This document shows positions 1,837 to 19,927 of a stretch of 64,000 bases of DNA, one piece after another. The notes beneath the pieces were generated by a model. That model was given only the letters and a program-made list of their open reading frames with translations. It was not told the origin of the DNA and did no database searches. The translations under genes and the position numbers were made by a program. Position 1 is the stretch's first letter, and the number at the start of each line of letters is the position of its first letter. Source of the stretch: Escherichia coli (lineage in GTDB: Bacteria; Pseudomonadota; Gammaproteobacteria; Enterobacterales; Enterobacteriaceae); assembly GCF_036507355.1 (NCBI RefSeq), contig NZ_AP027877.1; one strand, written 5' to 3'.

Positions 1837-3336
1837 ATGCTAAATTTATTTGTTGGCCTTGATATATACACAGGGCTTTTGTTATTACTTGCTCTGGCAT
1901 TTGTGTTGTTCTACGAAGCAATCAATGGTTTTCATGACACGGCGAATGCGGTGGCAACCGTTATTTATACTCGTGCCATGCAGCCACAGCTTGCCGTGGT
2001 GATGGCGGCATTTTTTAACTTTTTTGGCGTGTTATTGGGCGGACTTAGCGTTGCCTATGCCATTGTCCATATGTTGCCAACCGATTTGTTGCTGAATATG
2101 GGGTCAACCCACGGCCTGGCGATGGTCTTTTCCATGCTGCTGGCGGCGATTATCTGGAACCTGGGAACGTGGTTCTTCGGTTTACCGGCCTCCAGTTCGC
2201 ACACCTTGATTGGTGCGATTATCGGCATCGGTTTAACCAACGCGCTGTTAACCGGCTCATCGGTGATGGATGCGTTAAACCTGCGTGAAGTGACCAAAAT
2301 TTTCTCCTCGCTGATTGTTTCCCCTATCATCGGCCTGGTCATTGCGGGAGGCCTGATATTCCTGCTGCGCCGTTTCTGGAGCGGAACGAAAAAGCGTGAC
2401 CGTATTCACCGCATTCCGGAAGATCGCAAAAAGAAAAAAGGCAAACGTAAGCCGCCATTCTGGACGCGTATTGCGCTGATTGTTTCCGCTGCGGGCGTGG
2501 CGTTTTCGCACGGCGCTAACGACGGGCAGAAAGGGATCGGCCTGGTGATGCTGGTACTGGTGGGGATTGCCCCTGCTGGCTTCGTCGTCAATATGAACGC
2601 GTCCGGCTATGAAATTACCCGTACCCGCGATGCCGTTACCAACTTCGAACACTACCTGCAACAGCATCCTGAACTGCCGCAGAAGTTGATTGCGATGGAA
2701 CCTCCATTGCCTGCGGCATCGTCTGATGGCATGCAAGTAACGGAGTTTCACTGTCATCCGGCAAATACCTTTGATGCGATTGCGCGCGTTAAAACGATGC
2801 TGCCAGGCAATATGGAAAGTTACGAGCCGTTAAGCGTGAGTCAGCGCAGCCAGCTGCGCCGCATTATGCTGTGCATCTCTGATACCTCCGCGAAGCTGGC
2901 GAAACTGCCAGGCGTCAGTAAAGAAGACCAGAACCTGCTGAAAAAACTTCGCAGCGATATGTTAAGCACCATTGAGTACGCTCCGGTGTGGATCATCATG
3001 GCAGTAGCACTGGCGCTCGGCATTGGCACCATGATTGGCTGGCGTCGTGTTGCGATGACCATCGGTGAGAAGATTGGTAAGCGCGGCATGACGTATGCGC
3101 AAGGCATGGCGGCACAAATGACGGCGGCAGTGTCTATCGGTCTTGCCAGTTATATTGGGATGCCCGTCTCCACAACACACGTCCTCTCGTCTGCAGTTGC
3201 AGGGACGATGGTGGTGGACGGCGGTGGGTTACAGCGTAAAACGGTAACCAGCATCCTGATGGCGTGGGTATTTACTTTACCGGCGGCGATTTTTCTTTCT
3301 GGTGGGCTGTACTGGATAGCATTGCAGTTGATTTAA
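1837..3336 (+). CDS. pitB: Low-affinity inorganic phosphate transporter PitB
   Basis: 499-aa polytopic membrane protein, [17 protein letters not shown]... N-terminus; length and synteny next to gss match PitB. Confidence 0.9.
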
Positions 3337-3344
3337 CCTTCCTG

Positions 3345-3382
3345 AAAATGCCCGGTCCTGGCGATCGGGCATTTCCATTTTT
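3345..3382. terminator. Bidirectional rho-independent terminator between convergent pitB and yghT
   Basis: gaaaatgcccg ... cgggcatttcc stem followed by a T-run (ccattttt). Confidence 0.5.
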
Positions 3383-3384
3383 GG

Positions 3385-4077
3385 CTAGTGATAACCACGC
3401 GCGGTCATAAAATCCGTAATCGCTTTTTCTGCATCAACCAACACCTGTTCCAGTGGCTGATTGGCATCGATATCAACCAGTTGTGCACCACCAAAGGTTA
3501 ACTGTGGCGTTATGGCAATCTTCCTCGCCAGCGATTCCCGTTTATGGTCGGGTTTACGCATGCAGGCAACTTCAAGGTCAACATTGAGTTTGATGACCAG
3601 ATCAGGCTTATGGCTCGCCATCCAGTGAAACGCTTTACGTTCCTGGCTTGCCAGCCATGAGACAAAACGACCACCTTCAACGTTAGGTGGGAACACCGTA
3701 CCATCGTAAGCGCCAGGAATTTGGTCCTGAGGATAACGGTCGGTTAGAACAATTAACCCGCGACGACGACAGGCAAGCATATGACGAAAGCGCAGTAAGC
3801 GACGGGCGACAAACGCTGTAATTACCAGCGCCGGAACTGGTCCAGGCAATTTTTTTGCTGTTTTCACCTGATTTCGTTCAATTGTTTTATGTAAGGATTT
3901 TCCCATCAACGGTAATTTTGTCACTGCACGACCGACATTTCCGGCCTGTTTTCCTAAATGAACTCTTTCGGCAGCACCATATTTTTCGACAACGGTAATG
4001 AGATGTTCACACACCGTTGACTTGCCTGAACCATCGCTACCAATAACGGCAATTAATGGAGGTGTTATTGACTGCAT
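3385..4077 (-). CDS. yghT: P-loop ATP-binding protein YghT (predicted kinase-like)
   Basis: 230-aa ORF with Walker [12 protein letters not shown]; paralogous to the two following genes; K-12 synteny. Confidence 0.8.
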
Positions 4078-4250
4078 GAATATATCCTTTAATTTAAATA
4101 TCCATTAAAAATATTTATTTGGTTAATATGTTTTTATGAAAGCGTAATTCAGGTCAATGTCACAATTAACCATTGTCACAATAAGGTTGAACGGATATTC
4201 TGAGCACGGACCACGTAATATTCAATACATTATTTGCTGCCGGGTTTTTC

Positions 4251-4964
4251 GTGAATCAACGTAATATGTCAATAATTAATTCCACGCCAGTGCGTGTTAT
4301 TGCCATTGTAGGATGTGATGGTTCAGGTAAATCGACCCTCACGGCAAGCCTGGTAAATGAACTGGCAGCAAGAATACCAGCAGAACACATTTATCTCGGG
4401 CAATCGTCCGGGCGAATTGGCGAATGGATTTCACAGCTCCCTGTTATTGGCGCACCTTTTGGGCGTTATCTGCGAAGTAAAGCGGCACATGTGCACGAAA
4501 AGCCCTCAACACCGCCTGGCAATATTACTGCGCTGGTTATCTATCTGCTTTCCTGCTGGCGGGCGTACAAGTTTCGCAAAATGTTGTGTAGAAGCCAGCA
4601 AGGCCATCTGCTCATCACCGACCGCTACCCGCAGGTTGAAGTGCCGGGTTTTCGCTTTGATGGCCCGCAATTGGCAAAAACCACGGGCGGTAACGGTTGG
4701 ATAAAAATGTTAAGGCAGCGCGAGTTGAAGCTGTACCAATGGATGGCGTCTTATTTACCCGTATTGTTGATTCGTCTTGGCATTGATGAACAAACCGCGT
4801 TTGCGCGTAAACCTGACCACCAACTGGCAGCGTTACAGGAAAAAATCGCCGTTACGCCGCAACTGACATTCAATGGCGCAAAGATCCTTGAACTGGATGG
4901 TCGGCAACCAGCCGATGAAATTCTGCAAGCGTCACTACGCGCAATTCACGCCGCGCTTTCCTGA
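4251..4964 (+). CDS. yghS: P-loop ATP-binding protein YghS
   Basis: 237-aa ORF with Walker A IVGCDGSGKST and a shared ITDRYPQ motif. Confidence 0.8.
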   Translation: MNQRNMSIINSTPVRVIAIVGCDGSGKSTLTASLVNELAARIPAEHIYLGQSSGRIGEWISQLPVIGAPFGRYLRSKAAHVHEKPSTPPGNITALVIYLLSCWRAYKFRKMLCRSQQGHLLITDRYPQVEVPGFRFDGPQLAKTTGGNGWIKMLRQRELKLYQWMASYLPVLLIRLGIDEQTAFARKPDHQLAALQEKIAVTPQLTFNGAKILELDGRQPADEILQASLRAIHAALS

Positions 4965-4995
4965 TCACCAAAATGGATAGGGGATGATTTAACGA

Positions 4996-5754
4996 ATGGA
5001 TGCACTACAAACACAAACTGTTATTAGTACAACCGCGCCGCAGCCCAACTACATTCCGGGGCTGATTGCGGTGGTCGGGTGTGATGGCACCGGTAAATCC
5101 ACACTGACCACCGACCTGGTGAAATCGCTGCAACAACACTGGCAAACCGAGCGGCGCTATCTGGGGCTGCTCTCCGGCGAAGACGGCGACAAAATCAAAC
5201 GATTGCCGTTGGTTGGCGTCTGGCTGGAACGGCGACTGGCGGCCAAATCCTCGAAAACCCAAAGCATGAAAACCAAATCTCCGGCGCTATGGGCGGCGGT
5301 GATTATGTACTGCTTCTCGCTGCGAAGAATGGCGAATCTACGCAAGGTTCAGCGACTGGCGCAAAGTGGCGTTCTGGTGGTCAGCGATCGCTTCCCGCAG
5401 GCTGAAATTTCGGGCTTTTATTATGATGGACCGGGGATTGGCGTCGAACGTGCGACCGGGAAAATAAGCATGTTTCTGGCGCAGCGCGAACGGCGTTTAT
5501 ACCAACAAATGGCGCAATATCGCCCGGAATTAATTATTCGCTTGGGCATTGATATTGAGACTGCCATCTCCCGCAAGCCTGACCATGACTATGCCGAGCT
5601 GCAGGACAAAATCGGTGTTATGTCGACGATTGGCTATAACGGCACAAAAATTCTTGAGATTGATTCCAGAGCGCCCTACAGCGAAGTGCTGGAACAGGCA
5701 CAGAAGGCGGTTTCTCTGGTTGCCATCGTTTCTGACCGCCGAAGTTTAACTTAA
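4996..5754 (+). CDS. yghR: P-loop ATP-binding protein YghR
   Basis: 252-aa ORF with Walker A VVGCDGTGKST and a shared VSDRFPQ motif. Confidence 0.8.
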   Translation: MDALQTQTVISTTAPQPNYIPGLIAVVGCDGTGKSTLTTDLVKSLQQHWQTERRYLGLLSGEDGDKIKRLPLVGVWLERRLAAKSSKTQSMKTKSPALWAAVIMYCFSLRRMANLRKVQRLAQSGVLVVSDRFPQAEISGFYYDGPGIGVERATGKISMFLAQRERRLYQQMAQYRPELIIRLGIDIETAISRKPDHDYAELQDKIGVMSTIGYNGTKILEIDSRAPYSEVLEQAQKAVSLVAIVSDRRSLT

Positions 5755-5799: not shown

Positions 5800-7149
5800 T
5801 TGGCGGGTTTTAACATCAAACATTGGTTTGCAGATGGCGCGTTTCGCACCATTATTCGCAATAGCGCCTGGTTAGGCTCCAGTAATGTCGTGAGCGCCTT
5901 GCTGGGTCTGTTGGCGCTCTCGTGTGCCGGTAAAGGGATGACGCCCGCCATGTTTGGCGTACTGGTGATTGTGCAATCGTACGCCAAGTCGATCAGCGAT
6001 TTTATTAAGTTTCAGACATGGCAGCTGGTGGTTCAGTACGGAACACCAGCATTAACCAACAATAATCCGCAGCAATTTCGCAATGTCGTCTCATTTTCCT
6101 TCTCGCTGGATATCGTCAGCGGCGCGGTGGCGATTGTCGGCGGCATTGCCTTACTGCCATTCCTTTCCCATTCATTAGGTCTGGATGACCAAAGCTTTTG
6201 GCTGGCGGCGCTGTATTGCACGTTCATTCCTTCAATGGCTTCCTCCACGCCGACCGGCATTCTGCGTGCGGTAGATCGCTTTGATTTGATTGCTGTACAG
6301 CAGGCGACGAAACCTTTTCTGCGCGCAGCGGGGAGCGTCGCAGCCTGGTATTTTGACTTTGGTTTTGCGGGTTTTGTTATTGCCTGGTACGTGTCGAATC
6401 TGGTTGGCGGCACCATGTACTGGTGGTTTGCCGCGCACGAATTACGCCGCAGAAATATCCATAACGCCTTCAAATTGAATCTGTTTGAGTCTGCCCGACA
6501 CATTAAAGGCGCGTGGAGTTTTGTCTGGTCAACCAACATTGCCCACTCCATCTGGTCGGCGCGTAACTCGTGCAGCACAGTGTTGGTGGGGATCGTGTTA
6601 GGACCCGCTGCCGCCGGGTTATTTAAAATCGCCATGACATTCTTCGATGCCGCCGGAACGCCAGCGGGTTTGCTGGGTAAAAGTTTTTACCCAGAGGTGA
6701 TGCGTTTAGATCCGCGCACCACCAGACCGTGGTTGTTAGGCGTGAAGTCCGGTTTACTGGCGGGCGGAATCGGTATTCTGGTGGCGCTCGCGGTGTTGAT
6801 CGTCGGCAAGCCGCTCATTTCGCTGGTGTTTGGCGTTAAGTATCTCGAAGCGTATGACCTGATTCAGGTGATGCTGGGCGCAATTGTGATCTCGATGCTG
6901 GGTTTCCCGCAGGAGTCATTGCTATTGATGGCGGGAAAACAGCGCGCTTTTCTCGTGGCGCAAACCATCGCCTCAATCGGCTACATCGTATTGCTGTTCA
7001 TGTTCTGTCATCTGTTTGGTGTGCTGGGAGCAGCGTTTGCTTACTTCGGTGGGCAATGTCTGGACGTGGCGCTCTCGTTAATTCCAACCTTAAAGGCATT
7101 TTTTCAGCGCCATTCCTTGCTTTATAACGCAGCCGGAGAGAAATCCTGA
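5800..7149 (+). CDS. yghQ: Putative polysaccharide/lipid flippase of the MOP superfamily (YghQ); start uncertain, the ORF-track start at 5800 is TTG and an internal ATG lies at about 5938
   Basis: Long multi-pass hydrophobic ORF in the position of yghQ. Confidence 0.7.
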   Translation: MAGFNIKHWFADGAFRTIIRNSAWLGSSNVVSALLGLLALSCAGKGMTPAMFGVLVIVQSYAKSISDFIKFQTWQLVVQYGTPALTNNNPQQFRNVVSFSFSLDIVSGAVAIVGGIALLPFLSHSLGLDDQSFWLAALYCTFIPSMASSTPTGILRAVDRFDLIAVQQATKPFLRAAGSVAAWYFDFGFAGFVIAWYVSNLVGGTMYWWFAAHELRRRNIHNAFKLNLFESARHIKGAWSFVWSTNIAHSIWSARNSCSTVLVGIVLGPAAAGLFKIAMTFFDAAGTPAGLLGKSFYPEVMRLDPRTTRPWLLGVKSGLLAGGIGILVALAVLIVGKPLISLVFGVKYLEAYDLIQVMLGAIVISMLGFPQESLLLMAGKQRAFLVAQTIASIGYIVLLFMFCHLFGVLGAAFAYFGGQCLDVALSLIPTLKAFFQRHSLLYNAAGEKS

Positions 7150-7973
7150 TGATGAGAAAATATTTCCCGCTTGAGGCGAGCGAGCATCTATTTGTTGCGA
7201 TTGAGGAAGATGATGTTGTTGATGCCCAGGTCAGTTTGCCGCCGACTATCGCACTAAGTTGTACCACCGAAATCATCCATGATAATTACGCGTTATGCCT
7301 GCAATTCTGGCTCAATGGCGTTGATCGTCAGGAATTACTTCGTTTAATTCGCAAACAAGCCAAAGGCGATGAGCTGACGACAGACGAGCGTAAACAGTTT
7401 AAATACATGCGAGCGCGCTACAAGCATCTACGTTTTGCACAACGGCTGTATTTAAAAAAGCATCAGGCCAGATTTTTATTCGGCAAAACGACCGTTTTTC
7501 TGGGACGTTTTCAGGACGGATTTCGTAACGGTAAGAAAAATATTGTGTCGTATTACGGCAACCTGTTACGAATTTATTTAAGCTCTCCGGTCTGGTCGTT
7601 GGTGAACTATTCATTACGCCATAGCCAGTTAGAAAGCGTAAGCGGTTTTATTGCCTATCGGCAAAAGCAAATGCATACCCTGAAAGAGATTATTGCCAAA
7701 CCGCGACTAACCGGCAGGGAATTTCATGATGTGCGAAAAATCATCAGCCAGCAGGTTTCTTATTACGACACCTTAAGATCGCTTGATCCTGAAAATAAAG
7801 AGGCGTTACAGATTTCCCGTTTCCTCGCCGCCATTAATGGCCTGATGGGGGATCAACACGACGACATGGTGGCGGATGATATGGAAAACCGCCAGTCGTA
7901 TGATGCACCGGTGGCGCTGGATAGCGATATTCGCCAGCGCTTAGAGCTGCTGATTTCGCGTTTTCCGCTATAA
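7149..7973 (+). CDS. Hypothetical protein (274 aa), translationally coupled to yghQ
   Basis: ATG overlaps the yghQ stop (tgATGatg); no family recognised. Confidence 0.55.
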   Translation: MMRKYFPLEASEHLFVAIEEDDVVDAQVSLPPTIALSCTTEIIHDNYALCLQFWLNGVDRQELLRLIRKQAKGDELTTDERKQFKYMRARYKHLRFAQRLYLKKHQARFLFGKTTVFLGRFQDGFRNGKKNIVSYYGNLLRIYLSSPVWSLVNYSLRHSQLESVSGFIAYRQKQMHTLKEIIAKPRLTGREFHDVRKIISQQVSYYDTLRSLDPENKEALQISRFLAAINGLMGDQHDDMVADDMENRQSYDAPVALDSDIRQRLELLISRFPL

Positions 7974-7981
7974 CCGGAGCA

Positions 7982-8545
7982 ATGATGTCATCTCGTTTGA
8001 TTATTGCGCTGATTATCATGCTCTTAGCCCCGGGTGTGCAGGCACACAATTTCGTCACTGGCAAAACGGTTACCCCTGTTTATATTCAGGAAGGCGGCGA
8101 GCTGCTTCTGAATAGCGACGACGAAATTCACTACCAAAAGTGGAACAGCACACAATTGGCGGGAAAAGTCCGAATTATCCAGTATATCGCCGGGCGTAAG
8201 TCGGCGAAGAAAAAGAACTCACTGTTAATTAAAGCGGTTGAAGCGGCAAACTTTCCGCAGGATCGTTTTCAGCCCACCACCATTGTGAACACCGATGATG
8301 CCATCTTTGGTACTGGCTATTTTGTTGTTGGCAAAATCGAAAAAAATAAACGCCACTATCCGTGGGCGCAATTCGTTATTGACGGCAATGGACAGGGACG
8401 CGTTGCCTGGCGCTTGCCGGAGCAGAGTTCAACCATTCTGGTGCTGAATAAAGCCGGGCAAATTCAGTGGGCAAAGGACGGCAGCCTGACGCCGGAAGAG
8501 GTAGATCATGTTATTGCGCTGGCGCAGAAACTGATCAATGAATAA
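7982..8545 (+). CDS. YtfJ-family periplasmic protein (signal peptide)
   Basis: N-terminal signal peptide MMSSRLIIALIIMLLAPGVQA; motifs WNSTQLAGKVRIIQYIAGR and TTIVNTDDAI resemble recalled YtfJ. Confidence 0.55.
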   Translation: MMSSRLIIALIIMLLAPGVQAHNFVTGKTVTPVYIQEGGELLLNSDDEIHYQKWNSTQLAGKVRIIQYIAGRKSAKKKNSLLIKAVEAANFPQDRFQPTTIVNTDDAIFGTGYFVVGKIEKNKRHYPWAQFVIDGNGQGRVAWRLPEQSSTILVLNKAGQIQWAKDGSLTPEEVDHVIALAQKLINE

Positions 8546-8575
8546 AAAATTCAAAGGATTGAGGGCGTTAGTGAG

Positions 8576-9646
8576 ATGAAGCTGGTTGAACACTACATCA
8601 TGCGTGGTACGCGCCGTCTGGTGCTGATTATCGTCGGTTTTCTGATCTTTATTTTCGCCAGCTACTCCGCACAGCGTTATCTGACCGAAGCGGCAAATGG
8701 GACATTAGCTCTTGATGTTGTGCTGGATATCGTTTTCTACAAAGTGCTGATTGCACTGGAGATGTTGTTACCTGTTGGTCTGTATGTGTCAGTTGGCGTG
8801 ACGCTAGGGCAGATGTATACCGACTCGGAAATTACCGCTATCTCTGCGGCGGGGGGCAGTCCGGGACGCTTGTACAAAGCCGTTCTTTATCTGGCGATAC
8901 CGCTAAGTATTTTTGTCACCCTTCTGTCGATGTATGGTCGTCCGTGGGCTTATGCGCAGATTTATCAACTGGAGCAGCAGTCGCAGTCGGAGCTGGATGT
9001 TCGCCAGTTGCGGGCAAAGAAATTTAACACTAACGATAACGGACGAATGATCCTTTCGCAGACGGTTGATCAGGATAATAATCGCCTGACTGACGCGCTG
9101 ATTTATACTTCTACTGCCAATCGAACCCGCATTTTCCGCGCCCGTTCGGTTGATGTGGTTGACCCATCACCCGAGAAACCGACCGTTATGTTGCACAACG
9201 GCACTGCCTATCTTCTCGATCATCAGGGGCGTGACGACAACGAACAGATCTACCGTAATCTGCAATTACATCTGAATCCGCTGGATCAAAGCCCTAACGT
9301 CAAACGCAAAGCGAAATCGGTCACGGAGCTGGCGCGCTCCGTCTTTCCAGCCGATCATGCCGAACTGCAATGGCGACAAAGCCGTGGCCTGACCGCATTG
9401 TTGATGGCGCTGCTGGCCATTTCATTAAGTCGGGTAAAACCGCGGCAAGGGCGATTTTCAACATTATTGCCACTGACGTTGCTGTTTATTGCCATTTTTT
9501 ATGGCGGCGACGTCTGCCGTACGCTGGTGGCTAACGGCGCGATTCCCCTCATTCCTGGTTTGTGGTTAGTACCCGGACTCATGCTAATGGGCCTGCTGAT
9601 GCTGGTCGCACGCGACTTCTCTTTGCTGCAGAAATTTTCCCGATGA
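8576..9646 (+). CDS. LptF/LptG-family (YjgP/YjgQ) permease paralog
   Basis: 356-aa membrane protein with the family's N-terminal pattern (HYIMRGTRRLVLIIVGFLIF) and a large periplasmic loop. Confidence 0.65.
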   Translation: MKLVEHYIMRGTRRLVLIIVGFLIFIFASYSAQRYLTEAANGTLALDVVLDIVFYKVLIALEMLLPVGLYVSVGVTLGQMYTDSEITAISAAGGSPGRLYKAVLYLAIPLSIFVTLLSMYGRPWAYAQIYQLEQQSQSELDVRQLRAKKFNTNDNGRMILSQTVDQDNNRLTDALIYTSTANRTRIFRARSVDVVDPSPEKPTVMLHNGTAYLLDHQGRDDNEQIYRNLQLHLNPLDQSPNVKRKAKSVTELARSVFPADHAELQWRQSRGLTALLMALLAISLSRVKPRQGRFSTLLPLTLLFIAIFYGGDVCRTLVANGAIPLIPGLWLVPGLMLMGLLMLVARDFSLLQKFSR

Positions 9647-10722
9647 ATGTTTTCAGTCGCTATTTAATCCGTCATCTCTTTCTCGGTTTTGCCGCCGCCG
9701 CAGGGCTATTGCTGCCGCTTTTTACCACCTTCAACCTGATTAACGAACTGGATGATGTCAGCCCGGGCGGTTATCGCTGGACTCAGGCGGTGCTGGTGGT
9801 GCTAATGACCTTACCGCGCACACTTGTCGAACTTTCGCCATTTATCGCCTTATTGGGAGGGATTGTCGGCCTGGGGCAGCTATCGAAAAACAGTGAGCTT
9901 ACCGCCATTCGCAGCACGGGGTTTTCTATCTTCCGTATTGCACTGGTGGCGCTGGTTGCCGGGATATTGTGGACTGTTTCGTTAGGCGCGATAGATGAGC
10001 GGGTAGCGTCGCCATTGCAGCAACAGGCGCTGCAAATCAAATCGACCGCCACCGCGTTGGGGGAGGACGATGACATTACCGGCAATATGCTGTGGGCCAG
10101 GCGCGGCAATGAATTTGTGACGGTGAAATCGCTGAATGAGCAGGGCCAGCCTGTGGGCGTGGAGATTTTTCATTATCGTGACGATCTCTCGCTCGAATCC
10201 TACATTTATGCACGCAGTGCCACCATTGAAGACGACAAAACGTGGATCCTGCATGGTGTGAATCATAAAAAATGGCTGAATGGCAAAGAAACGCTGGAAA
10301 CATTAGATAATCTTGCCTGGCAATCGGCCTTCACCAGTATGGATCTTGAAGAGCTATCGATGCCGGGGAATACTTTTTCTGTCCGTCAGCTTAATCATTA
10401 CATCCATTATTTGCAGGAAACCGGGCAACCCAGCAGCGAATACCGCCTTGCACTGTGGGAAAAACTGGGGCAACCCATCCTGACCCTGGCGATGATTTTG
10501 CTGGCTGTGCCGTTTACCTTTAGCGCCCCGCGCTCGCCAGGGATGGGTAGCCGTCTCGCTGTAGGCGTCATCGTTGGCTTACTCACCTGGATCAGCTATC
10601 AAATCATGGTCAATTTGGGATTGCTATTTGCGTTAAGCGCACCTGTTACCGCGCTCGGTTTACCGATAGCGTTTGTGCTGGTGGCGTTGAGCCTGGTGTA
10701 TTGGTATGACAGACAACATTAA
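9643..10722 (+). CDS. LptF/LptG-family (YjgP/YjgQ) permease paralog; start taken at MNVFSRYLIRHLF, overlapping the upstream stop by 4 nt
   Basis: N-terminus MNVFSRYLIRHLFLGF is typical of LptG-like proteins; ATGA overlap with the upstream gene. Confidence 0.65.
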   Translation: MNVFSRYLIRHLFLGFAAAAGLLLPLFTTFNLINELDDVSPGGYRWTQAVLVVLMTLPRTLVELSPFIALLGGIVGLGQLSKNSELTAIRSTGFSIFRIALVALVAGILWTVSLGAIDERVASPLQQQALQIKSTATALGEDDDITGNMLWARRGNEFVTVKSLNEQGQPVGVEIFHYRDDLSLESYIYARSATIEDDKTWILHGVNHKKWLNGKETLETLDNLAWQSAFTSMDLEELSMPGNTFSVRQLNHYIHYLQETGQPSSEYRLALWEKLGQPILTLAMILLAVPFTFSAPRSPGMGSRLAVGVIVGLLTWISYQIMVNLGLLFALSAPVTALGLPIAFVLVALSLVYWYDRQH

Positions 10723-10756
10723 ACCCGCCGTGGCGCAACACCACGGCGGGCTCACA

Positions 10757-11929
10757 TTACTGCTTCAGAGTAGCAAATGCCTGAATGATGGCATCGATTT
10801 GCTCACGACTGTGGGCAGCGTTTACGCTACAGCGCAGCAGCGTGATGCCTGCAGGCGCGGCAGGTGGCAGGATAAGATTCACATAAACGCCCAGCGAAAT
10901 AAGCTCGCGCCAGATGCGTAAACCTTCCTCTTTCGAACCGATTATTACCGGCACTACCGGACTAATATGTGAACTTAACTCATAACTCAGCTTTTGCAGC
11001 CCGTCATACAGATGGTTGGCATTATCCATCAGTTTTTGCCGCAACTCTGGTTGAGTGGCAATGGTTCTTAACGACGAGCGCACGGTTGCAATGCAGGAAG
11101 GAGAAGGGGAGGCGGTAAAAATATACGGACGACTGCCGTAGCGCAGCACTTCCATCGCTTCCGAACCCACGGCAAAACCACCAATAGAAGCCAGGCTTTT
11201 ACTGAAGGTGCCAACGATAATATCCACATCATCTTCAACGCCAACGGCTTCAACCAGCCCGCGCCCCGTTGCGCCTAACACGCCAAACGAGTGAGCTTCA
11301 TCGACAATTAAATATCCGCCGAGACGACGTTTGATATCAACAATTTCCGCCAGCGGCGCAACGTCACCGAGCATACTGTAGATGCCCTCAACGATGATAA
11401 TCGCCTCTTTCGCCCGTTCACCGAGGCGAACCATGCGCCGTTCCAGATCTTTAGCATCGTTATGGCGGAAACGAATAATTTCCGCGCCACCGAGAGAACA
11501 GGCGTCATAAATACTGGCGTGGCTGTCAGCATCCAGTAACACCACGGCGTTATGGTCGGCAAGTGCGCTGATGACGCCTAAATTAGCGGTATAACCGGTT
11601 GAAAAAACGATAGCGGTAGGGCGATTGAAAAACTCAGCAATCTCTTTCTCTAACGCCAGATGCGGCGCATAACTGCCGTTTGCCATACGAGAACCGGTGG
11701 TGCCGGTGCCTTGGGCCGCTAACGCTGCCTGACCTTCGGCGATGGCATCATGATTGAAGGTTAATCCGAGATAATTATTGGTCCCGGCCAGAATCACTTT
11801 TTTATTGCCGATCCGGCCTTCGGTGGCGGAATACACTTCATCAATACAGGTGCCAAACGGTGTTAACCCGTTGTCACTAAATTGCAGACGCTCGCCAGCA
11901 AGGCGCGCATATTTATCGTATAGCCCCAT
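10757..11929 (-). CDS. PLP-dependent alpha-oxoamine synthase family acyltransferase (AONS/KBL/serine-palmitoyltransferase-like)
   Basis: 390 aa; class-II aminotransferase fold motifs and PLP lysine context GTFSKSL. Confidence 0.8.
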   Translation of the reverse strand: MGLYDKYARLAGERLQFSDNGLTPFGTCIDEVYSATEGRIGNKKVILAGTNNYLGLTFNHDAIAEGQAALAAQGTGTTGSRMANGSYAPHLALEKEIAEFFNRPTAIVFSTGYTANLGVISALADHNAVVLLDADSHASIYDACSLGGAEIIRFRHNDAKDLERRMVRLGERAKEAIIIVEGIYSMLGDVAPLAEIVDIKRRLGGYLIVDEAHSFGVLGATGRGLVEAVGVEDDVDIIVGTFSKSLASIGGFAVGSEAMEVLRYGSRPYIFTASPSPSCIATVRSSLRTIATQPELRQKLMDNANHLYDGLQKLSYELSSHISPVVPVIIGSKEEGLRIWRELISLGVYVNLILPPAAPAGITLLRCSVNAAHSREQIDAIIQAFATLKQ

Positions 11930-12177
11930 TATTTATTCTCCAGCCATGGAAGTAGAGTTTCCATTAATTGCGCAGGGGTTTTGACATCCAGCAGAATATT
12001 AATAGGAATGGAAATATCGAATCTGTCTTCCAGCATCATTAAGAGATCCATCACTTTGATCGACTCCAGGCCAAGATCGTTGACGAGATCGCTGTCGGGC
12101 TTAATTTCCACACCGTTTTCGACCAAATCCTGTAAACAGGAAAGGATGTAATCCATTACTATTTCACGATTTACCAT
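11929..12177 (-). CDS. Acyl carrier protein
   Basis: 82-aa acidic protein with phosphopantetheine attachment motif DLGLESIKVMDL. Confidence 0.7.
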   Translation of the reverse strand: MVNREIVMDYILSCLQDLVENGVEIKPDSDLVNDLGLESIKVMDLLMMLEDRFDISIPINILLDVKTPAQLMETLLPWLENK

Positions 12178-12208
12178 AGAAACGTTAACACACCTTTAAA
12201 CAAGACAA

Positions 12209-13123
12209 TCAAAATAGCCCGTTGCGTAATGCGTGTTCCAGGCTAATCCCGGGAAACCAATTAATATCTTCAGAAATACGGTTATTACTTGCCGACCAGT
12301 CGGCGTGGGTTAATTCACGAATTTTCGAGCGGGTCAGCATAGGTTCTTTACCTGCCAGGCGACTCAACGCGGTACTGATATCCGCAAGGCAGGTGAGTAC
12401 CGGCAGAGGAATGCCAACCATTCGCACGGAACCACAACGGGCGTCGGCGGCAAGTTGCTGTACGCGTTGCCAGTCATAGCCGCCAGCGACGCCATCGCAT
12501 AATTCATAGGTTTGCGTCTGTACAGTTTCGGCGCTTAACCACTGACCCACTGCTTGCGCAAAATCGGTGACATGCAGGAAAGAGAGCTGTGTATCTGGTG
12601 CACCAAGTCGTGGCAGCAGGCCGCGCAGCATCCAGTCAAACAGCGGTTTTAACTCTTTATCGCCGGGACCATACACGGCTGTCGGGCGAAAAACGCCCAG
12701 CGTAATTTCGTCAGCCATTGCCGTCAGCCGTTGTTCGGCGACGTGTTTGGAATTTGCGTACCAGGAGAGCTCGGGATGGCGCGCCGCCAGCGAAGAGATA
12801 AACAGAAAACGTTGGCAAAAGCCGCTCTCTTTTGCTGCTTGCATCAGGCGCAGGCTGCCGTCAACGTTACAGTGGGTAAAAATCTCTTCTTTGTGTCCGC
12901 GCACTTGCCCGGCGCAATGGACCACCGCGCTGGCTCCGGCAACCAGTTCGCTAAGCGAATGTGTATCTTCCAGCGAACCGCGCACCCAAGTAAGATTATC
13001 ATTGACGTGAGCGCGGGCAGTACGCGTCAATGCGCGAACGTGAAAGCCGCGGGCGAGCAGGTTATCGATAATATATTTACCGATAAAACCGGTAGCGCCC
13101 GTCACCGCGACAGTTTGATTCAT
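12209..13123 (-). CDS. NAD(P)-dependent epimerase/dehydratase or reductase (extended SDR)
   Basis: N-terminal Rossmann motif VAVTGATGFIGKYI; 304 aa. Confidence 0.75.
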   Translation of the reverse strand: MNQTVAVTGATGFIGKYIIDNLLARGFHVRALTRTARAHVNDNLTWVRGSLEDTHSLSELVAGASAVVHCAGQVRGHKEEIFTHCNVDGSLRLMQAAKESGFCQRFLFISSLAARHPELSWYANSKHVAEQRLTAMADEITLGVFRPTAVYGPGDKELKPLFDWMLRGLLPRLGAPDTQLSFLHVTDFAQAVGQWLSAETVQTQTYELCDGVAGGYDWQRVQQLAADARCGSVRMVGIPLPVLTCLADISTALSRLAGKEPMLTRSKIRELTHADWSASNNRISEDINWFPGISLEHALRNGLF

Positions 13124-14844
13124 GCCAGGGATTCCTGCACATGAAGGCTTGCAGCATAAGCCTTCTGATAACGTTTTTTCGCTTCCGCACGGGCAGGCTT
13201 GCCGGAGGACGTTCGGGGAATGCTGTGGGGCGGCAACAGATCGATAGCCGCGGTCACGCCAAATTCGCTTTGGATCCGTGCTGCCAGCGCGTGGATAAGC
13301 TGCCCGCGACGTTCTTCATCGCTGATCCGACACTGGATCTGCAAAATGATTTTTTCCTGGACGGTAACAAAAGCAATCGCATCGCCAGAATGAATTTCCG
13401 GTTCCTGTTCCGCTATATATTCAATATCCTGCGGCCAGATATTACGGCCACGAATAATAATCAGATCTTTAATGCGTCCGGTGACATACAGATAACCATC
13501 CAGCAGATAACCGAGGTCGCCAGTGTCTAACCAGCCCGTCGCGGCAATCTCGTCTTGCGAAGCCTGGTCGCCAAAGTAACCGCTCATCAGACTGGGACCG
13601 GAGATGCAAATATGGCCTACCACACGTTCCGCGACCGGCATACCTGCTTGATTGCGGATTTCAATACCATGTTCCGGCAACGCTTTGCCGCAGTTGACGA
13701 AAGTCGATACGGCGCGTGTCTCTGCACCCGGCGCGACGGCTTTACCCTGATATTCGAGGATGTCGCGATCCACTTCGTTAACTACAACCCCGGAGGCTTC
13801 ATCAGAGAAGCTGACAGCCAGCGCATTTTCTGCCAGGCCGTAGCACGGCATGAAAGTTTTATCGTCAAAGTTAACCTGACGGAAACATTCAGCGAATTGA
13901 TGGAGTTGTTCTGCGGAGATGGGTTCTGCACCAATACCAGCGACGCGCCAGCAGGAAAGATCCAGTTCAGCGAGATCTTTTTCATTCACGCGGCGCTGGC
14001 ACAATTCATAGCCAAACGGCGGCGCAACGGAAACGGTGCCGCGATTTTTACTGATCAATTTAAGCCATTGCAGAGGACGCATGGCAAAATCCTGAGTGCG
14101 CAAATAATCTACTGAAAGTTGCGTGGCGACGGGGGTCAGGAGAAAGCCGACCAGTCCCATATCATGGTAGAAAGGCAGCCAGGAGACGCAGCGGTCGCCA
14201 GGGCGTAATTTAATGCCGTCGTGGCTTATAGCACGTAGATTAGCCATCACTTCGCGATGGGTGATAATGACGCCACGGGGAAAACGGGTGCTGCCGGAGG
14301 TGTACTGGAGGTAGGCGATATCGTTCGGAACTGGACGCTGGAGCGCAACATCGGCTTCCGGTAATGCCTTAAACCAGGCGTGGCTTAAAACATGTAATTC
14401 GGGGTTGTCATGCGTCGCGGCATTGACCAGTGGCAACCACTCATCACCAGTGATAATGGCTGCGGGCTGGCAACTTGTCAGTAAACCCTGCAATTTGGCG
14501 CTCCAGGAATCCCGCTGACCAACGCCCATTGGAATCGCCAACGGGACGGCGACTAAGCCGGCATACTGGCAGGCAAAAAAAGCCTCTACGAACCCGCTAC
14601 TTGTTTCGGCAATCAGTGCCACGCGATCGCCTTTTTTCAGGTTCAGCGATAACAACCGCTTCGCACCAGCTTCGGCACGCGCTTTTAACGTCTGATATTC
14701 CAGTTGATCTTCAAGTTGGCAACGTCTGTCATAAAAATTCATTCCAGCGCTACTCAGAGCGGCGTAGTCCAAAGCATCAACCAGCGTTGGAAAATCGGCA
14801 TAGCGTATAGGTAGGGAATGCGTAAAGATTTTATTAGACATATA
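13120..14844 (-). CDS. Fatty acyl-AMP ligase / acyl-CoA synthetase (AMP-binding superfamily); start taken at ATG MSNKIF
   Basis: AMP-binding motifs (YLQYTSGSTRFPRGV, GYG/ELC region); stop overlaps the start of the downstream epimerase gene. Confidence 0.8.
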   Translation of the reverse strand, partial: YMSNKIFTHSLPIRYADFPTLVDALDYAALSSAGMNFYDRRCQLEDQLEYQTLKARAEAGAKRLLSLNLKKGDRVALIAETSSGFVEAFFACQYAGLVAVPLAIPMGVGQRDSWSAKLQGLLTSCQPAAIITGDEWLPLVNAATHDNPELHVLSHAWFKALPEADVALQRPVPNDIAYLQYTSGSTRFPRGVIITHREVMANLRAISHDGIKLRPGDRCVSWLPFYHDMGLVGFLLTPVATQLSVDYLRTQDFAMRPLQWLKLISKNRGTVSVAPPFGYELCQRRVNEKDLAELDLSCWRVAGIGAEPISAEQLHQFAECFRQVNFDDKTFMPCYGLAENALAVSFSDEASGVVVNEVDRDILEYQGKAVAPGAETRAVSTFVNCGKALPEHGIEIRNQAGMPVAERVVGHICISGPSLMSGYFGDQASQDEIAATGWLDTGDLGYLLDGYLYVTGRIKDLIIIRGRNIWPQDIEYIAEQEPEIHSGDAIAFVTVQEKIILQIQCRISDEERRGQLIHALAARIQSEFGVTAAIDLLPPHSIPRTSSGKPARAEAKKRYQKAYAASLHVQESLA

Positions 14845-15211
14845 CACCACGAAAAAATTGGATATCCAAAATAAAATGACAATAATGCGGTGGATTATAT
14901 AGGCATAAAAGATAAATGAGATAGTATTTTCATCGGTGTGAAAATGAACATTGATTTAAATAATGAGTTTAAGTTTTTTGTTTTTATTGTGAATGATATT
15001 TAATTTATGAATATATTAAGAAGAAGCCTTGTCCGGTCGCCTTAAATCGACAAAAGGCATTGTGGCGCTTCTGCGTAGTCGCTGACCCTATCGTAATCAT
15101 TAATAAATACTATTTATTCGTCGTTTGTATTCATTGGGTTGATTATTAAGATGCCGTTCGTTGCTGTTGCAACCTGTTTTTCACCGTTAATTATTTGTTA
15201 TCCACAGAACT

Positions 15212-16354
15212 ATGGAATGCGATCTGCTGATGATCAAAATTGAAAAAGTAATTAATAAAAATGACCTTAAGGCATTTATTGCTTTTCCGTCATCACTTTA
15301 TCCCGATGATCCAAACTGGATACCCCCTTTATTCATTGAACGCAGCGAGCATTTGTCTGCGAAGAATCCGGGGACGGACCATATCATCTGGCAGGCGTGG
15401 GTGGCAAAAAAAGCGGGGCAGATAGTTGGGCGTATTACCGCGCAAATAGATACCTTACACCGCGAGTGTTACGGCGAAGATACCGGTCATTTCGGCATGA
15501 TTGACGCCATTGATGATCCGCAGGTTTTTGCCGCGTTGTTTGGCGCAGCGGAAGCGTGGTTGAAGTCACAAGGTGCAAGTAAGATCAGCGGGCCTTTCAG
15601 CCTGAATATCAATCAGGAAAGCGGATTACTGATTGAAGGTTTTGACACACCACCCTGTGCGATGATGCCACACGGCAAACCGTGGTATGCCGCGCATATT
15701 GAACAACTGGGTTATCACAAAGGCATTGATTTACTGGCGTGGTGGATGCAGCGAACCGATCTCACTTTCTCTCCGGCGCTAAAAAAACTGATGGTTCAGG
15801 TGCGCAAAAAGGTGACCATTCGCTGCATCAATCGCCAGCGGTTTGCCGAAGAGATGCAGATCCTGCGTGAGATTTTCAACTCTGGCTGGCAGCACAACTG
15901 GGGATTTGTGCCGTTTACCGAACATGAATTCGCGACCATGGGCGACCAACTTAAATATCTGGTGCCGGACGATATGATCTACATCGCTGAGATTGATTCT
16001 GCACCTTGCGCGTTTATTGTCGGCTTGCCAAACATCAACGAGGCGATTGCCGATCTGAACGGATCGCTCTTTCCCTTCGGCTGGGCAAAATTGCTGTGGC
16101 GTTTGAAAGTCAGCGGTGTGCGAACTGCGCGAGTACCGCTGATGGGCGTGCGCGACGAGTATCAGTTCAGCCGCATCGGCCCGGTGATTGCGCTGTTATT
16201 GATTGAAGCCTTACGCGATCCGTTTGCCCGCCGGAAGATCGATGCGCTGGAGATGTCATGGATCCTCGAAACCAATACAGGCATGAATAACATGCTGGAA
16301 CGCATTGGGGCGGAGCCGTACAAGCGTTACCGATTGTATGAAAAGCAGATTTAA
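15212..16354 (+). CDS. yghO: YghO-like protein (full length here)
   Basis: 380-aa ORF in the yghO position, divergent from the lipid cluster and adjacent to glcC. Confidence 0.6.
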   Translation: MECDLLMIKIEKVINKNDLKAFIAFPSSLYPDDPNWIPPLFIERSEHLSAKNPGTDHIIWQAWVAKKAGQIVGRITAQIDTLHRECYGEDTGHFGMIDAIDDPQVFAALFGAAEAWLKSQGASKISGPFSLNINQESGLLIEGFDTPPCAMMPHGKPWYAAHIEQLGYHKGIDLLAWWMQRTDLTFSPALKKLMVQVRKKVTIRCINRQRFAEEMQILREIFNSGWQHNWGFVPFTEHEFATMGDQLKYLVPDDMIYIAEIDSAPCAFIVGLPNINEAIADLNGSLFPFGWAKLLWRLKVSGVRTARVPLMGVRDEYQFSRIGPVIALLLIEALRDPFARRKIDALEMSWILETNTGMNNMLERIGAEPYKRYRLYEKQI

Positions 16355-17375: not shown

Positions 17376-18875
17376 ATGAGCATCTTGTACGAAGAGCGTC
17401 TTGATGGCGCTTTACCCGATGTCGACCGCACATCGGTACTGATGGCACTGCGTGAGCATGTCCCTGGACTTGAGATCCTGCATACCGATGAGGAGATCAT
17501 TCCTTACGAGTGTGACGGGTTGAGCGCGTATCGCACGCGTCCATTACTGGTTGTTCTGCCTAAGCAAATGGAACAGGTGACAGCGATTCTGGCTGTCTGC
17601 CATCGCCTGCGTGTACCGGTGGTGACCCGTGGTGCAGGCACCGGGCTTTCTGGTGGCGCGCTGCCGCTGGAAAAAGGTGTGTTGTTGGTGATGGCGCGCT
17701 TTAAAGAGATCCTCGACATTAATCCCGTTGGTCGCCGCGCGCGCGTGCAGCCAGGCGTGCGTAACCTGGCGATCTCCCAGGCCGTTGCACCGCATAATCT
17801 CTACTACGCACCGGATCCTTCCTCACAAATCGCCTGTTCCATTGGCGGCAACGTGGCGGAAAATGCCGGTGGCGTCCACTGCCTGAAATATGGTCTGACC
17901 GTACATAACCTGCTGAAAATTGAAGTGCAAACGCTGGATGGCGAGGCACTGACGCTGGGATCGGATGCGCTGGATTCGCCTGGTTTTGACCTGCTGGCGT
18001 TGTTCACCGGATCGGAAGGTATGCTCGGCGTGACCACCGAAGTGACGGTAAAACTGCTGCCGAAGCCGCCCGTGGCGCGGGTTCTGTTAGCAAGCTTTGA
18101 CTCGGTAGAAAAAGCCGGACTTGCGGTTGGTGACATCATCGCCAATGGCATTATCCCCGGCGGGCTGGAGATGATGGATAACCTGTCGATCCGCGCGGCG
18201 GAAGATTTTATTCATGCCGGTTATCCCGTCGACGCCGAAGCGATTTTGTTATGCGAGCTGGACGGCGTGGAGTCTGACGTACAGGAAGACTGCGAGCGGG
18301 TTAACGACATCTTGTTGAAAGCGGGCGCGACTGACGTCCGTCTGGCACAGGACGAAGCAGAGCGCGTACGTTTCTGGGCCGGTCGCAAAAATGCGTTCCC
18401 GGCGGTAGGACGTATCTCCCCGGATTACTACTGCATGGATGGCACCATCCCGCGTCGCGCCCTGCCTGGCGTACTGGAAGGCATTGCTCGTTTATCGCAG
18501 CAATATGATTTACGTGTTGCCAACGTCTTTCATGCCGGAGATGGCAACATGCACCCGTTAATCCTTTTCGATGCCAACGAACCCGGTGAATTTGCCCGCG
18601 CGGAAGAGCTGGGCGGGAAGATCCTCGAACTCTGCGTTGAAGTTGGCGGCAGCATCAGTGGGGAACATGGCATCGGGCGAGAAAAAATCAATCAAATGTG
18701 CGCCCAGTTCAATAGCGATGAAATCACGACCTTCCATGCGGTCAAGGCGGCGTTTGACCCCGATGGTTTGCTGAACCCTGGGAAAAACATTCCCACGCTA
18801 CACCGCTGTGCTGAATTTGGTGCCATGCATGTGCATCACGGTCATTTACCTTTTCCTGAACTGGAGCGCTTCTGA
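17376..18875 (+). CDS. glcD: Glycolate oxidase FAD-binding subunit GlcD
   Basis: 499 aa; FAD-binding PCMH-type domain motifs; operon context. Confidence 0.93.
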   Translation: MSILYEERLDGALPDVDRTSVLMALREHVPGLEILHTDEEIIPYECDGLSAYRTRPLLVVLPKQMEQVTAILAVCHRLRVPVVTRGAGTGLSGGALPLEKGVLLVMARFKEILDINPVGRRARVQPGVRNLAISQAVAPHNLYYAPDPSSQIACSIGGNVAENAGGVHCLKYGLTVHNLLKIEVQTLDGEALTLGSDALDSPGFDLLALFTGSEGMLGVTTEVTVKLLPKPPVARVLLASFDSVEKAGLAVGDIIANGIIPGGLEMMDNLSIRAAEDFIHAGYPVDAEAILLCELDGVESDVQEDCERVNDILLKAGATDVRLAQDEAERVRFWAGRKNAFPAVGRISPDYYCMDGTIPRRALPGVLEGIARLSQQYDLRVANVFHAGDGNMHPLILFDANEPGEFARAEELGGKILELCVEVGGSISGEHGIGREKINQMCAQFNSDEITTFHAVKAAFDPDGLLNPGKNIPTLHRCAEFGAMHVHHGHLPFPELERF

Positions 18876-19927
18876 TGCTACGCGAGTGTGATTACAGTCA
18901 GGCGCTGCTGGAGCAGGTGAATCAGGCAATTAGCGATAAAACGCCGCTGGTGATTCAGGGCAGCAATAGCAAAGCCTTTTTAGGTCGCCCAGTCACCGGG
19001 CAAACGCTGGATGTGCGTTGTCATCGCGGCATTGTTAATTACGACCCGACCGAGCTGGTGATAACCGCTCGTGCCGGAACGCCGCTGGTGGCGATTGAAG
19101 CGGCGCTGGAGAGCGCCGGGCAAATGCTTCCCTGCGAGCCGCCGCATTATGGTGAAGAAGCCACCTGGGGCGGGATGGTCGCCTGCGGGCTGGCGGGGCC
19201 GCGTCGCCCGTGGAGCGGTTCGGTCCGCGATTTTGTCCTCGGCACGCGCATCATTACCGGCGCTGGAAAACATCTGCGTTTTGGTGGTGAAGTGATGAAA
19301 AACGTTGCCGGATACGATCTCTCACGGTTAATGGCCGGAAGCTACGGTTGTCTTGGCGTGCTCACTGAAATCTCAATGAAAGTGTTACCGCGACCGCGCG
19401 CCTCCCTGAGCCTGCGTCGGGAAATCAGCCTGCAAGAAGCCATGAGTGAAATCGCCGAGTGGCAACTCCAGCCATTACCCATTAGTGGCTTATGTTACTT
19501 CGACAATGCGTTGTGGATCCGCCTTGAGGGCGGCGAAGGATCGGTAAAAGCAGCGCGTGAACTGCTGGGTGGCGAAGAGGTTGCGGGTCAGTTCTGGCAG
19601 CAATTGCGTGAACAACAACTGCCGTTCTTCTCGTTACCAGGTACCTTATGGCGCATTTCATTACCCAGCGATGCGCCGATGATGGATTTACCCGGCGAGC
19701 AACTGATCGACTGGGGCGGGGCGTTACGCTGGCTGAAATCGACAGCCGAGGACAATCAAATCCATCGCATCGCCCGCAACGCTGGCGGTCATGCGACCCG
19801 CTTTAGTGCCGGAGATGGTGGCTTTGCCCCGCTATCGGCTCCTTTATTCCGCTATCACCAGCAGCTTAAACAGCAGCTCGACCCTTGCGGCGTGTTTAAC
19901 CCCGGTCGCATGTACGCGGAACTTTGA
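18875..19927 (+). CDS. glcE: Glycolate oxidase subunit GlcE
   Basis: 350 aa; start overlaps the glcD stop. Confidence 0.92.
   Translation: MLRECDYSQALLEQVNQAISDKTPLVIQGSNSKAFLGRPVTGQTLDVRCHRGIVNYDPTELVITARAGTPLVAIEAALESAGQMLPCEPPHYGEEATWGGMVACGLAGPRRPWSGSVRDFVLGTRIITGAGKHLRFGGEVMKNVAGYDLSRLMAGSYGCLGVLTEISMKVLPRPRASLSLRREISLQEAMSEIAEWQLQPLPISGLCYFDNALWIRLEGGEGSVKAARELLGGEEVAGQFWQQLREQQLPFFSLPGTLWRISLPSDAPMMDLPGEQLIDWGGALRWLKSTAEDNQIHRIARNAGGHATRFSAGDGGFAPLSAPLFRYHQQLKQQLDPCGVFNPGRMYAEL

Follow-up and report, generated by a model that had tools for sequence, protein, structure and literature searches.

Three thymidylate kinase-like paralogs beside the ceramide gene cluster of Escherichia coli are candidate kinases of a lipid head group

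Escherichia coli is not regarded as a sphingolipid producer, yet the relevant enzymes of E. coli B are active (PMC9386255) and the spt-acpR gene pair is widespread in the species. What, then, do the three P-loop proteins YghT, YghS and YghR, whose genes adjoin such a cluster, contribute to it? The question was addressed in a 64,000-nucleotide stretch of E. coli contig NZ_AP027877.1 (the window), DNA of 99.3% identity to which is found in RefSeq-annotated E. coli chromosomes. Judged by sequence, the trio is a distinct and divergent family within the thymidylate kinase (TMPK) superfamily. We tentatively propose that YghT, YghS and YghR are non-redundant, catalytically competent kinases, whose target is the phosphate-bearing head group of a ceramide lipid that is subsequently flipped and exported. 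With the flippase YghQ and a 274-amino acid (aa) CHAD-like protein they may, on a similarly provisional footing, make up a conserved module for the head group within the E. coli-type sphingolipid cluster.

Three full-length paralogs with a thymidylate kinase fold

The first-pass annotation of the window had recognized three P-loop open reading frames (ORFs) as yghT, yghS and yghR, one of them divergent from the other two, and its coordinates are exact and its names those of RefSeq. yghT (3385-4077, minus strand; 230 aa; assigned from the ORF listing, paralogy and RefSeq name) diverges from the co-directional yghS (4251-4964, plus strand; 237 aa, GTG start) and yghR (4996-5754, plus strand; 252 aa; assigned from the ORF listing, BLASTP and RefSeq name). 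The two motifs on which that annotation relied are present in all three products, namely a Walker A block, which reads IVGCDGSGKST in YghS and VVGCDGTGKST in YghR, and a second motif reading TDRYPQ in YghT and YghS and SDRFPQ in YghR. By BLASTP, YghS and YghR share 44% identity over 218 aa (E 6e-62), YghT and YghS 37% over 217 aa (E 4e-53), and YghT and YghR 34% over 220 aa (E 2e-47), while a three-way alignment contains 54 invariant columns. Since the similarity spans the whole proteins, the objection that they have in common only a generic P-loop fails.

The proposed kinase-like character of the proteins is borne out by their fold. In an AlphaFold2 model of high confidence (predicted local distance difference test score 90.8) the fold is that of TMPK, P-loop, DR(Y/H) motif and lid included. 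Over their whole length, TMPK sequences are matched by the family profile (A2; E 1.8e-8 to 9e-8), the match including the acidic residue of the P-loop, a helix arginine (FSxxR in the family, FSANR in TMPK), the DRY motif, a strand and lid (PDLvirL.vd...A..RKPDH) and the C-terminal IDAtqP. There is no close relative of solved structure: the best match in the Protein Data Bank has an E-value of 1.6e-3 with a three-sequence profile and reaches 2e-8 only with a 45-sequence profile. Both acceptor-phosphate arginines of TMPK are retained in the family (R104 and R125 in YghS), as is the P-loop aspartate, and the 21-residue spacing of the two arginines is that of human TMPK.

Conservation within the family extends over both halves of the predicted active site. 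With 75-82 sequences compared per orthogroup (T, S and R, after the three E. coli genes), 30 positions reach 90% conservation or more in each of the three groups, among them the Walker A lysine, D124 and R125, E158, and R186-K187-P188-D189-H190 of the lid, and it is this conservation of catalytic positions that makes none of the three look like a dead paralog. Acceptor-site residues (D23, R104, R125, D137 and E158) are conserved as strongly as those of the ATP site, which argues for a bound second substrate. A few residues of an xLGxxxG loop are in turn orthogroup-specific (H/K in T, Y/Q in S, Y/L in R), and N-terminal segments resembling transmembrane helices are found in some family members. 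Compared with the cryptic Escherichia clades, the ratio of non-synonymous to synonymous substitution (dN/dS) is 0.04-0.16 for the trio and 0.06-0.075 for yghT. The trio is thus under purifying selection, and no copy looks to be decaying or catalytically dead.

RefSeq names the proteins 'dTMP kinase' or 'nucleoside/nucleotide kinase family protein', and the TMPK fold and motifs, the retention of the P-loop acidic residue and of both acceptor-phosphate arginines, and best family matches to PF02223 and TIGR00041 are what a true dTMP or nucleoside monophosphate (NMP) kinase would display. The scores of YghT, YghS and YghR nevertheless fall below the cut-offs of both models, at 19.7, 17.7 and 26.8 bits against 27 for PF02223 and at 24.4, 24.7 and 32.0 bits against 83.25 for TIGR00041, YghR scoring highest of the three, and the segment between P-loop and DRY motif, which is the NMP-binding region, aligns poorly with TMPK. 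Three orthogroups tied to flippase, CHAD and ceramide genes would make no sense for nucleotide salvage, and E. coli has its essential canonical tmk elsewhere. We consider a role in nucleotide metabolism most improbable, and the label 'dTMP kinase' over-reaches. A role in anti-phage defence was also considered and rejected, the PADLOC matches being of P-loop length only and, with E-values above 2e-4, indistinguishable from noise.

An ancient triplication linked to ceramide genes

A profile search of 1.84 billion representative proteins returned 2175 relatives, 143 of them at E <=1e-30. Neighbour-joining places the single-domain proteins in one clade, within which T, S and R are separate orthogroups, each with members from E. 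coli, Serratia and Carnimonas. All three occur together in Enterobacterales, Xanthomonadales, Betaproteobacteria, Sphingomonadales and Acetobacter, a range that takes in Alpha-, Beta- and Gammaproteobacteria. The triplication is therefore ancient, as had been surmised, and T, S and R are probably non-redundant and all maintained, given their separate orthogroups, their group-specific xLGxxxG residues and their low dN/dS.

A scan of one genome per GTDB species yielded 80 loci, and these were compared by tblastn with the 13 E. coli cluster proteins; the following counts refer to the 76 loci from outside Escherichia. yghR directly follows yghS in 67/76 loci and yghT lies divergently upstream in 54. 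YghQ is present in 57 and the 274-aa CHAD-like protein in 50, Spt is encoded at >=50% identity within the locus (10 kb) in 47, and a YtfJ-family gene is co-located in 34. The linkage persists over at least four gene orders, the blocks being arranged differently among Escherichia, Citrobacter, Serratia, Pantoea, Rosenbergiella, Carnimonas, Rhodanobacter, Luteibacter, and metagenome-assembled genomes (MAGs) of Beta- and Gammaproteobacteria. The sphingolipid genes of Sphingobium and Sphingopyxis are dispersed, and a one-strand operon S-R-T-YghQ-274aa is found in these genera; the order in Acetobacter is S-R-T-YghQ with S, R and T co-directional, no homolog of the 274-aa CHAD protein being detected there by tblastn. 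Since block order varies while this association persists, the constant unit is that of the three kinases, the flippase YghQ and the 274-aa CHAD-like protein. The first-pass annotation had further invoked tandem duplication together with inversion of one gene; the orientation of yghT did change, as the divergent and the co-directional arrangements attest. As side observations, Lysobacterales MAGs (L069, L071 and L072) carry two YghT-type genes upstream of S-R, so that the family can reach four paralogs, and in Luteibacter the CHAD-like gene is present in two tandem copies (18016-18855 and 18877-19716 in locus L047; 18052-18891 and 19005-19844 in locus L048).

The neighbouring genes, earlier described as a lipid cluster, are the known proteobacterial ceramide cluster, which comprises spt, acpR, cerR, aasR and yghO/bCerS (PMC9386255), and the trio stays beside it through several independent rearrangements. 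In the window, yghR is followed on the plus strand by yghQ (5800-7149), here full length at 449 aa and encoding a flippase of the MOP/Polysacc_synt type (PF01943, E 4.5e-11), by the gene for the 274-aa protein (7149-7973), by a YtfJ-family gene (7982-8545; PF09695, E 1.5e-59) whose product begins with a hydrophobic, signal peptide-like segment, and by paralogs of lptF (LptF2-like, 8576-9646; PF03739, E 8e-54) and lptG (LptG2-like, 9643-10722; PF03739, E 1e-68). Because yghS and yghR are 31 bp apart, yghR and yghQ 45 bp, and yghQ overlaps the gene that follows it, yghS to lptG2 reads as a single operon. On the opposite strand lie spt for serine palmitoyltransferase (10757-11929; PF00155 and RefSeq name), acpR for a specialised acyl carrier protein (11929-12177; ORF and RefSeq name; PMC9386255), cerR/epi for an NAD-dependent reductase (12209-13123) and aasR for an acyl-AcpR synthetase or acyl-AMP ligase (13120-14808; PMC9386255), followed on the plus strand by yghO (15212-16354), encoding a homolog of ceramide synthase (bCerS), an N-acyltransferase (PMC9386255); these last three were assigned from RefSeq and cluster comparison. 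Spt, AcpR and AasR of E. coli B were shown to produce 3-oxo-sphinganine, and yghO has been equated with aca (CC_1154), a ceramide N-acyltransferase gene (PMC9386255). Sphingolipid transport in Caulobacter requires LptF2/G2 paralogs (bioRxiv 10.64898/2026.04.12.717747), and CC_1166 of that genus, of the same flippase family as YghQ, is the proposed sphingolipid flippase (PMC11324152, supplement).

Some details of the locus may be recorded here. The YtfJ-family gene occupies the place of Caulobacter LptC2. Read as its longest ORF, the lptG paralog would begin at a GTG (9562) and share 85 bp with lptF2; from the RefSeq-equivalent start (9643) the two genes overlap by 4 bp, as is typical of translational coupling. 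The AT-rich spacer between yghT and yghS (4078-4250; 173 bp, GC about 0.40) is the presumed control region of the two divergent genes, in which a promoter scan returned one sigma-70-like match (4173-4201, plus strand), a count not above chance; yghS was up 3.1-fold upon SlyA overexpression in K-12 (PMC5797941). A hairpin between the convergent pitB and yghT (3346-3374; 12-pair stem followed by a T-run) is terminator-like by consensus match.

Of 5426 E. coli genomes that are complete, 4743 carry the trio and 4139 carry spt-acpR, making the sphingolipid cluster the majority state of the species and K-12 the exception. In MG1655 an IS5 element (insH9) lies between yghO and a truncated yghQ (355 aa), and the genes from that of the CHAD protein through aasR are missing: the site (6147-7341 of locus L090) corresponds to positions 7149-14850 of the window and has lost the CHAD-like, ytfJ-like, lptF2/G2, spt, acpR, cerR and aasR genes. 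yghR, yghS and yghT of MG1655 are intact and 98-99.6% identical to those of the window. The ceramide genes of K-12 were thus removed by an IS5-associated deletion that left the three kinases in place, which is why yghR, yghS and yghT look like orphans in this strain. The vancomycin-resistant mutants of a transposon screen in K-12, only 50 in number, included insertions in yghQ, yghR, yghS and yghT, the remainder of the set including mla, waa, opg, lpoB, nlpI and tolC, mostly envelope genes (PMC9278758). This screen, the insertions of which were uncomplemented, connects yghQ, yghR, yghS and yghT with each other and with the envelope.

Closest to the T/S/R clade from outside it are proteins of approximately 500 aa in which the kinase domain follows a nucleotidyltransferase-like N-terminal domain (with a weak match to PF14907 in one). 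In some relatives the kinase domain is fused to a MOP/Polysacc_synt_3 flippase and a nucleotidyltransferase-like domain (P0222, 978 aa; P0269, 1038 aa) or to a GT4 glycosyltransferase (P0257, 669 aa), or is found as a tandem double kinase; P0254 (889 aa) is also listed among these fusions. The gene for the outgroup protein P0169 directly follows a flippase gene, and the Wzx/Wzy cluster in which it lies also holds GT4, Wzy and sulfotransferase genes. We note that in locus L091 (1012-12048) the outgroup nucleotidyltransferase-kinase lies in a Wzx/Wzy cluster, with a sulfotransferase and genes for the synthesis of 3'-phosphoadenosine 5'-phosphosulfate, and that a second small P-loop protein is encoded directly downstream; this may be a parallel arrangement of a flippase with paired P-loop proteins. 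P0139 lies on a contig of 1.3 kb, too short to provide gene context.

These fusions and adjacencies imply that the partnership of flippase and kinase predates its use in ceramide clusters, for which reason a glycan-directed role stays as a rival. The kinases would then modify a sugar or a polyprenyl phosphate-linked glycan flipped by YghQ, in a polysaccharide or glycolipid pathway to which the ceramide genes are no more than neighbours. Besides the outgroup proteins P0222, P0269, P0257 and P0169, the RefSeq name of YghQ ('LPS biosynthesis protein', for lipopolysaccharide) and the existence of the trio and of an envelope phenotype in a K-12 strain devoid of spt (PMC9278758) speak for such a role. 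The E. coli-type cluster, however, is devoid of a glycosyltransferase, an initiating phosphoglycosyl transferase and a polymerase; the single-domain T/S/R clade is distinct from that of the polysaccharide clusters; the linkage to spt outlasts several rearrangements; and the Caulobacter sphingolipid cluster also has a flippase of the YghQ family (PMC11324152, supplement). On balance we regard a glycan substrate as unlikely.

A possible route to an anionic ceramide lipid

The fold, the conserved catalytic motifs, the orthogroup structure, the purifying selection and the gene linkage are established in this work. From these we infer the substrate, the product and the order of steps of a putative pathway. 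Ceramide would be made at the inner membrane by Spt, AcpR, AasR, CerR and YghO, as shown elsewhere for the enzymes of E. coli B. A hydroxyl kinase would next convert it to ceramide-1-phosphate, this being a DgkA-like or DAGK_cat paralog of the cluster or, in E. coli, the housekeeping DgkA. The three TMPK-like kinases would then transfer phosphate from ATP onto the phosphate-bearing head group, presumably through a phosphoanhydride bond as with TMPK and the archaeal polyphosphate kinase PPK3, and might act sequentially or as a hetero-oligomer while the CHAD protein holds the phosphate-rich product. By analogy with Caulobacter, YghQ would finally flip the anionic lipid, and LptF2/G2 and the YtfJ-like protein would export it to the outer membrane.

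The gene content of the clusters is suggestive of such chemistry. Neither a homolog of CpgA-D, the head-group enzymes of Caulobacter, nor a glycosyltransferase is found in the E. coli-type cluster, which leaves the trio and the CHAD protein as its only head-group candidates. DgkA is able to phosphorylate ceramide in vitro. DgkA-family paralogs lie within the cluster in 21 loci (2279-2644, minus strand, in locus L002; 12404-12730, plus strand, in locus L004), often directly after yghR, in Serratia, Sodalis, Pantoea, Erwinia, Rosenbergiella, Tatumella, Mangrovibacter and Carnimonas, E. coli having no such copy, and DAGK_cat-like genes are found in six loci. PAP2 lipid-phosphate phosphatases, LpxO-like hydroxylases and PEMT/ICMT-like membrane methyltransferases are further recurrent neighbours. 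Together these recurrent neighbours point to lipid-phosphate chemistry. In passing, we note that clusters of Beta- and Gammaproteobacteria add two PAP2 phosphatases, a PEMT/ICMT-like membrane methyltransferase, an LpxO-like hydroxylase and a DUF2147 protein (L077, 4956-7807 and 9776-11040; L050, 3832-5116; L082, 7126-7815), and that the methyltransferase gene often lies between T and S where no CHAD gene is detected.

The 274-aa protein is a divergent CHAD domain (PF05235) of the polyphosphate-binding type. It has the all-helical two-bundle fold and the conserved histidine and basic residues of this domain, and the family is matched by Pfam, which misses the domain in the E. coli protein itself. 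An alternative identity, with the nucleotidyltransferase-like N-terminal domain of the outgroup proteins of about 500 aa, was tried and discarded, the best BLASTP E-value being 2.2 and the protein having proved CHAD-like.

The pairing of TMPK-like paralogs with a CHAD protein has a precedent in Sulfolobus, where PPK3 (Saci_2019/Saci_2020) is a hetero-oligomer of two adjacent TMPK-like paralogs encoded beside a CHAD gene in an operon context of CHAD, PPX and SixA; one of the paralogs, rPPK3, is without the DRX arginine and purely regulatory (PMC12995831). The precedent shows that TMPK paralogs can act as a hetero-oligomer on a phosphate chain with a CHAD protein and, by analogy, the trio and its CHAD protein might be a heteromeric kinase that makes or consumes free polyphosphate, with an indirect link to the lipid cluster such as phosphate supply or buffering. 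The second-best structural match of YghS is indeed the S. tokodaii PPK3 homolog (2plr/5h70), and the trio has a CHAD-like partner. The profile, however, matches 2plr in the P-loop only (E 4e-5), as against the full-length match at E 2e-8 to canonical TMPKs; T, S and R all keep R125, with a conservation of at least 90%, so that there is no subunit of the rPPK3 type; and no ppx, sixA or pst neighbours were seen in the neighbourhoods examined. The conserved partners are instead a membrane flippase and ceramide genes, and the adjacency to pitB is absent in Serratia and Carnimonas. E. coli, moreover, already has PPK1. By these sequence-based tests the trio is not a PPK3, and we think it doubtful that free polyphosphate is its substrate or product.

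Regulatory or energising NTPases, which would gate YghQ or LptF2G2 or sense the nucleotide state without phosphorylating a lipid, would account for the absence from the cluster of a dedicated ATPase gene for LptF2G2, and have parallels in the kinase domains fused to flippases in other taxa and in the purely regulatory PPK3 paralog (PMC12995831). The fold of the trio is that of TMPK and not of an ABC ATPase, however, and LptF2G2 of Caulobacter uses the housekeeping LptB (bioRxiv 10.64898/2026.04.12.717747). These points, together with an acceptor site as conserved as the ATP site, make such a function very unlikely.

Several observations weigh against the head-group kinase proposal. K-12 keeps the trio intact, as do at least ~600 complete E. 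coli genomes without spt. The vancomycin phenotype arose in a strain without ceramide and would therefore be indirect or reflect a second substrate, and, if it is direct, ceramide cannot be the sole substrate. The closest outgroup is found in Wzx/Wzy polysaccharide clusters rather than lipid clusters, and 29/76 loci have no ceramide gene within 10 kb, many of these being short contigs or from taxa with scattered sphingolipid genes. Finally, our literature search returned no biochemical or lipidomic work on YghT, YghS or YghR or on any E. coli sphingolipid, no link between yghR, yghS or yghT and sphingolipids, and no mention of a ceramide di- or polyphosphate.

A bolder version of the head-group proposal, to which we give little credence for now, is that an oligo- or polyphosphate anchored in a lipid is the joint product of the trio and the CHAD protein, ceramide-1-phosphate being extended by phosphoanhydride bonds, flipped by YghQ and placed at the surface by the Lpt-like proteins. 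If true, this would be an anionic envelope lipid of a new class, encoded by some three quarters of E. coli genomes and by many other Proteobacteria, and a second, lipid-directed use of a design that pairs TMPK paralogs with CHAD and is so far found only in archaeal PPK3.

As far as computation can test it, the first-pass annotation's reading of the trio is supported; that annotation had overlooked YghQ and the CHAD-like protein, the two constant partners, by which the hypothesis is sharpened. The bare observation is not new, the genes having already been named and annotated; what appears to be new is the recognition of the trio, YghQ and a hidden CHAD protein as a conserved head-group module, and of its PPK3-like design. 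Five candidate head-group genes can now be named (yghT, yghS, yghR, yghQ and the CHAD-like gene), and three long-standing 'y-genes' of K-12 gain a context. Should the product be an anionic surface lipid, it could affect the outer membrane barrier, susceptibility to polymyxin and vancomycin, and host recognition; the anionic sphingolipids of Caulobacter have such effects.

Comparison with known systems

From thymidylate kinase proper (PF02223/TIGR00041) the trio differs in its sub-cut-off scores, in its invariant motifs YLG/HLG-x3-G, P-x2-G, DRYPQ-x8-DGP and RKPDH, and in comprising three orthogroups tied to flippase, CHAD and ceramide genes instead of nucleotide metabolism. The likeness to PPK3 lies in the adjacency of TMPK paralogs and a CHAD protein; the differences are that there are three paralogs and not two, that the profile comparison shows no specific sequence affinity, and that the trio is instead associated with a MOP flippase, an Lpt-like exporter and genes of ceramide synthesis.

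The Caulobacter head-group pathway (CpgA-D; PMC10331486, PMC11324152, PMC12275187) holds the same place in a homologous cluster of spt, acpR, cerR, aasR, bCerS, LptF2/G2 and a Polysacc_synt flippase, and the two systems presumably share the role of making ceramide anionic before its export. That the trio might be homologous to CpgB, the ceramide kinase of Caulobacter, was considered and rejected, CpgB being a DAGK_cat kinase with a GGDG motif (PMC10331486) and the trio having a P-loop TMPK fold and no DAGK_cat match. The proteins of the two pathways are in fact unrelated: CpgA, CpgC and CpgD are CDP-alcohol and cytidylyl transferases, none of which is found in the E. coli-type cluster, and the Caulobacter cluster as described is without the P-loop trio. 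A further likeness is offered by LpxK, the lipid A 4'-kinase, a P-loop kinase that phosphorylates the precursor of a membrane lipid on the cytoplasmic side of the inner membrane, ahead of flipping and export by Lpt, much as the trio may do with a ceramide lipid.

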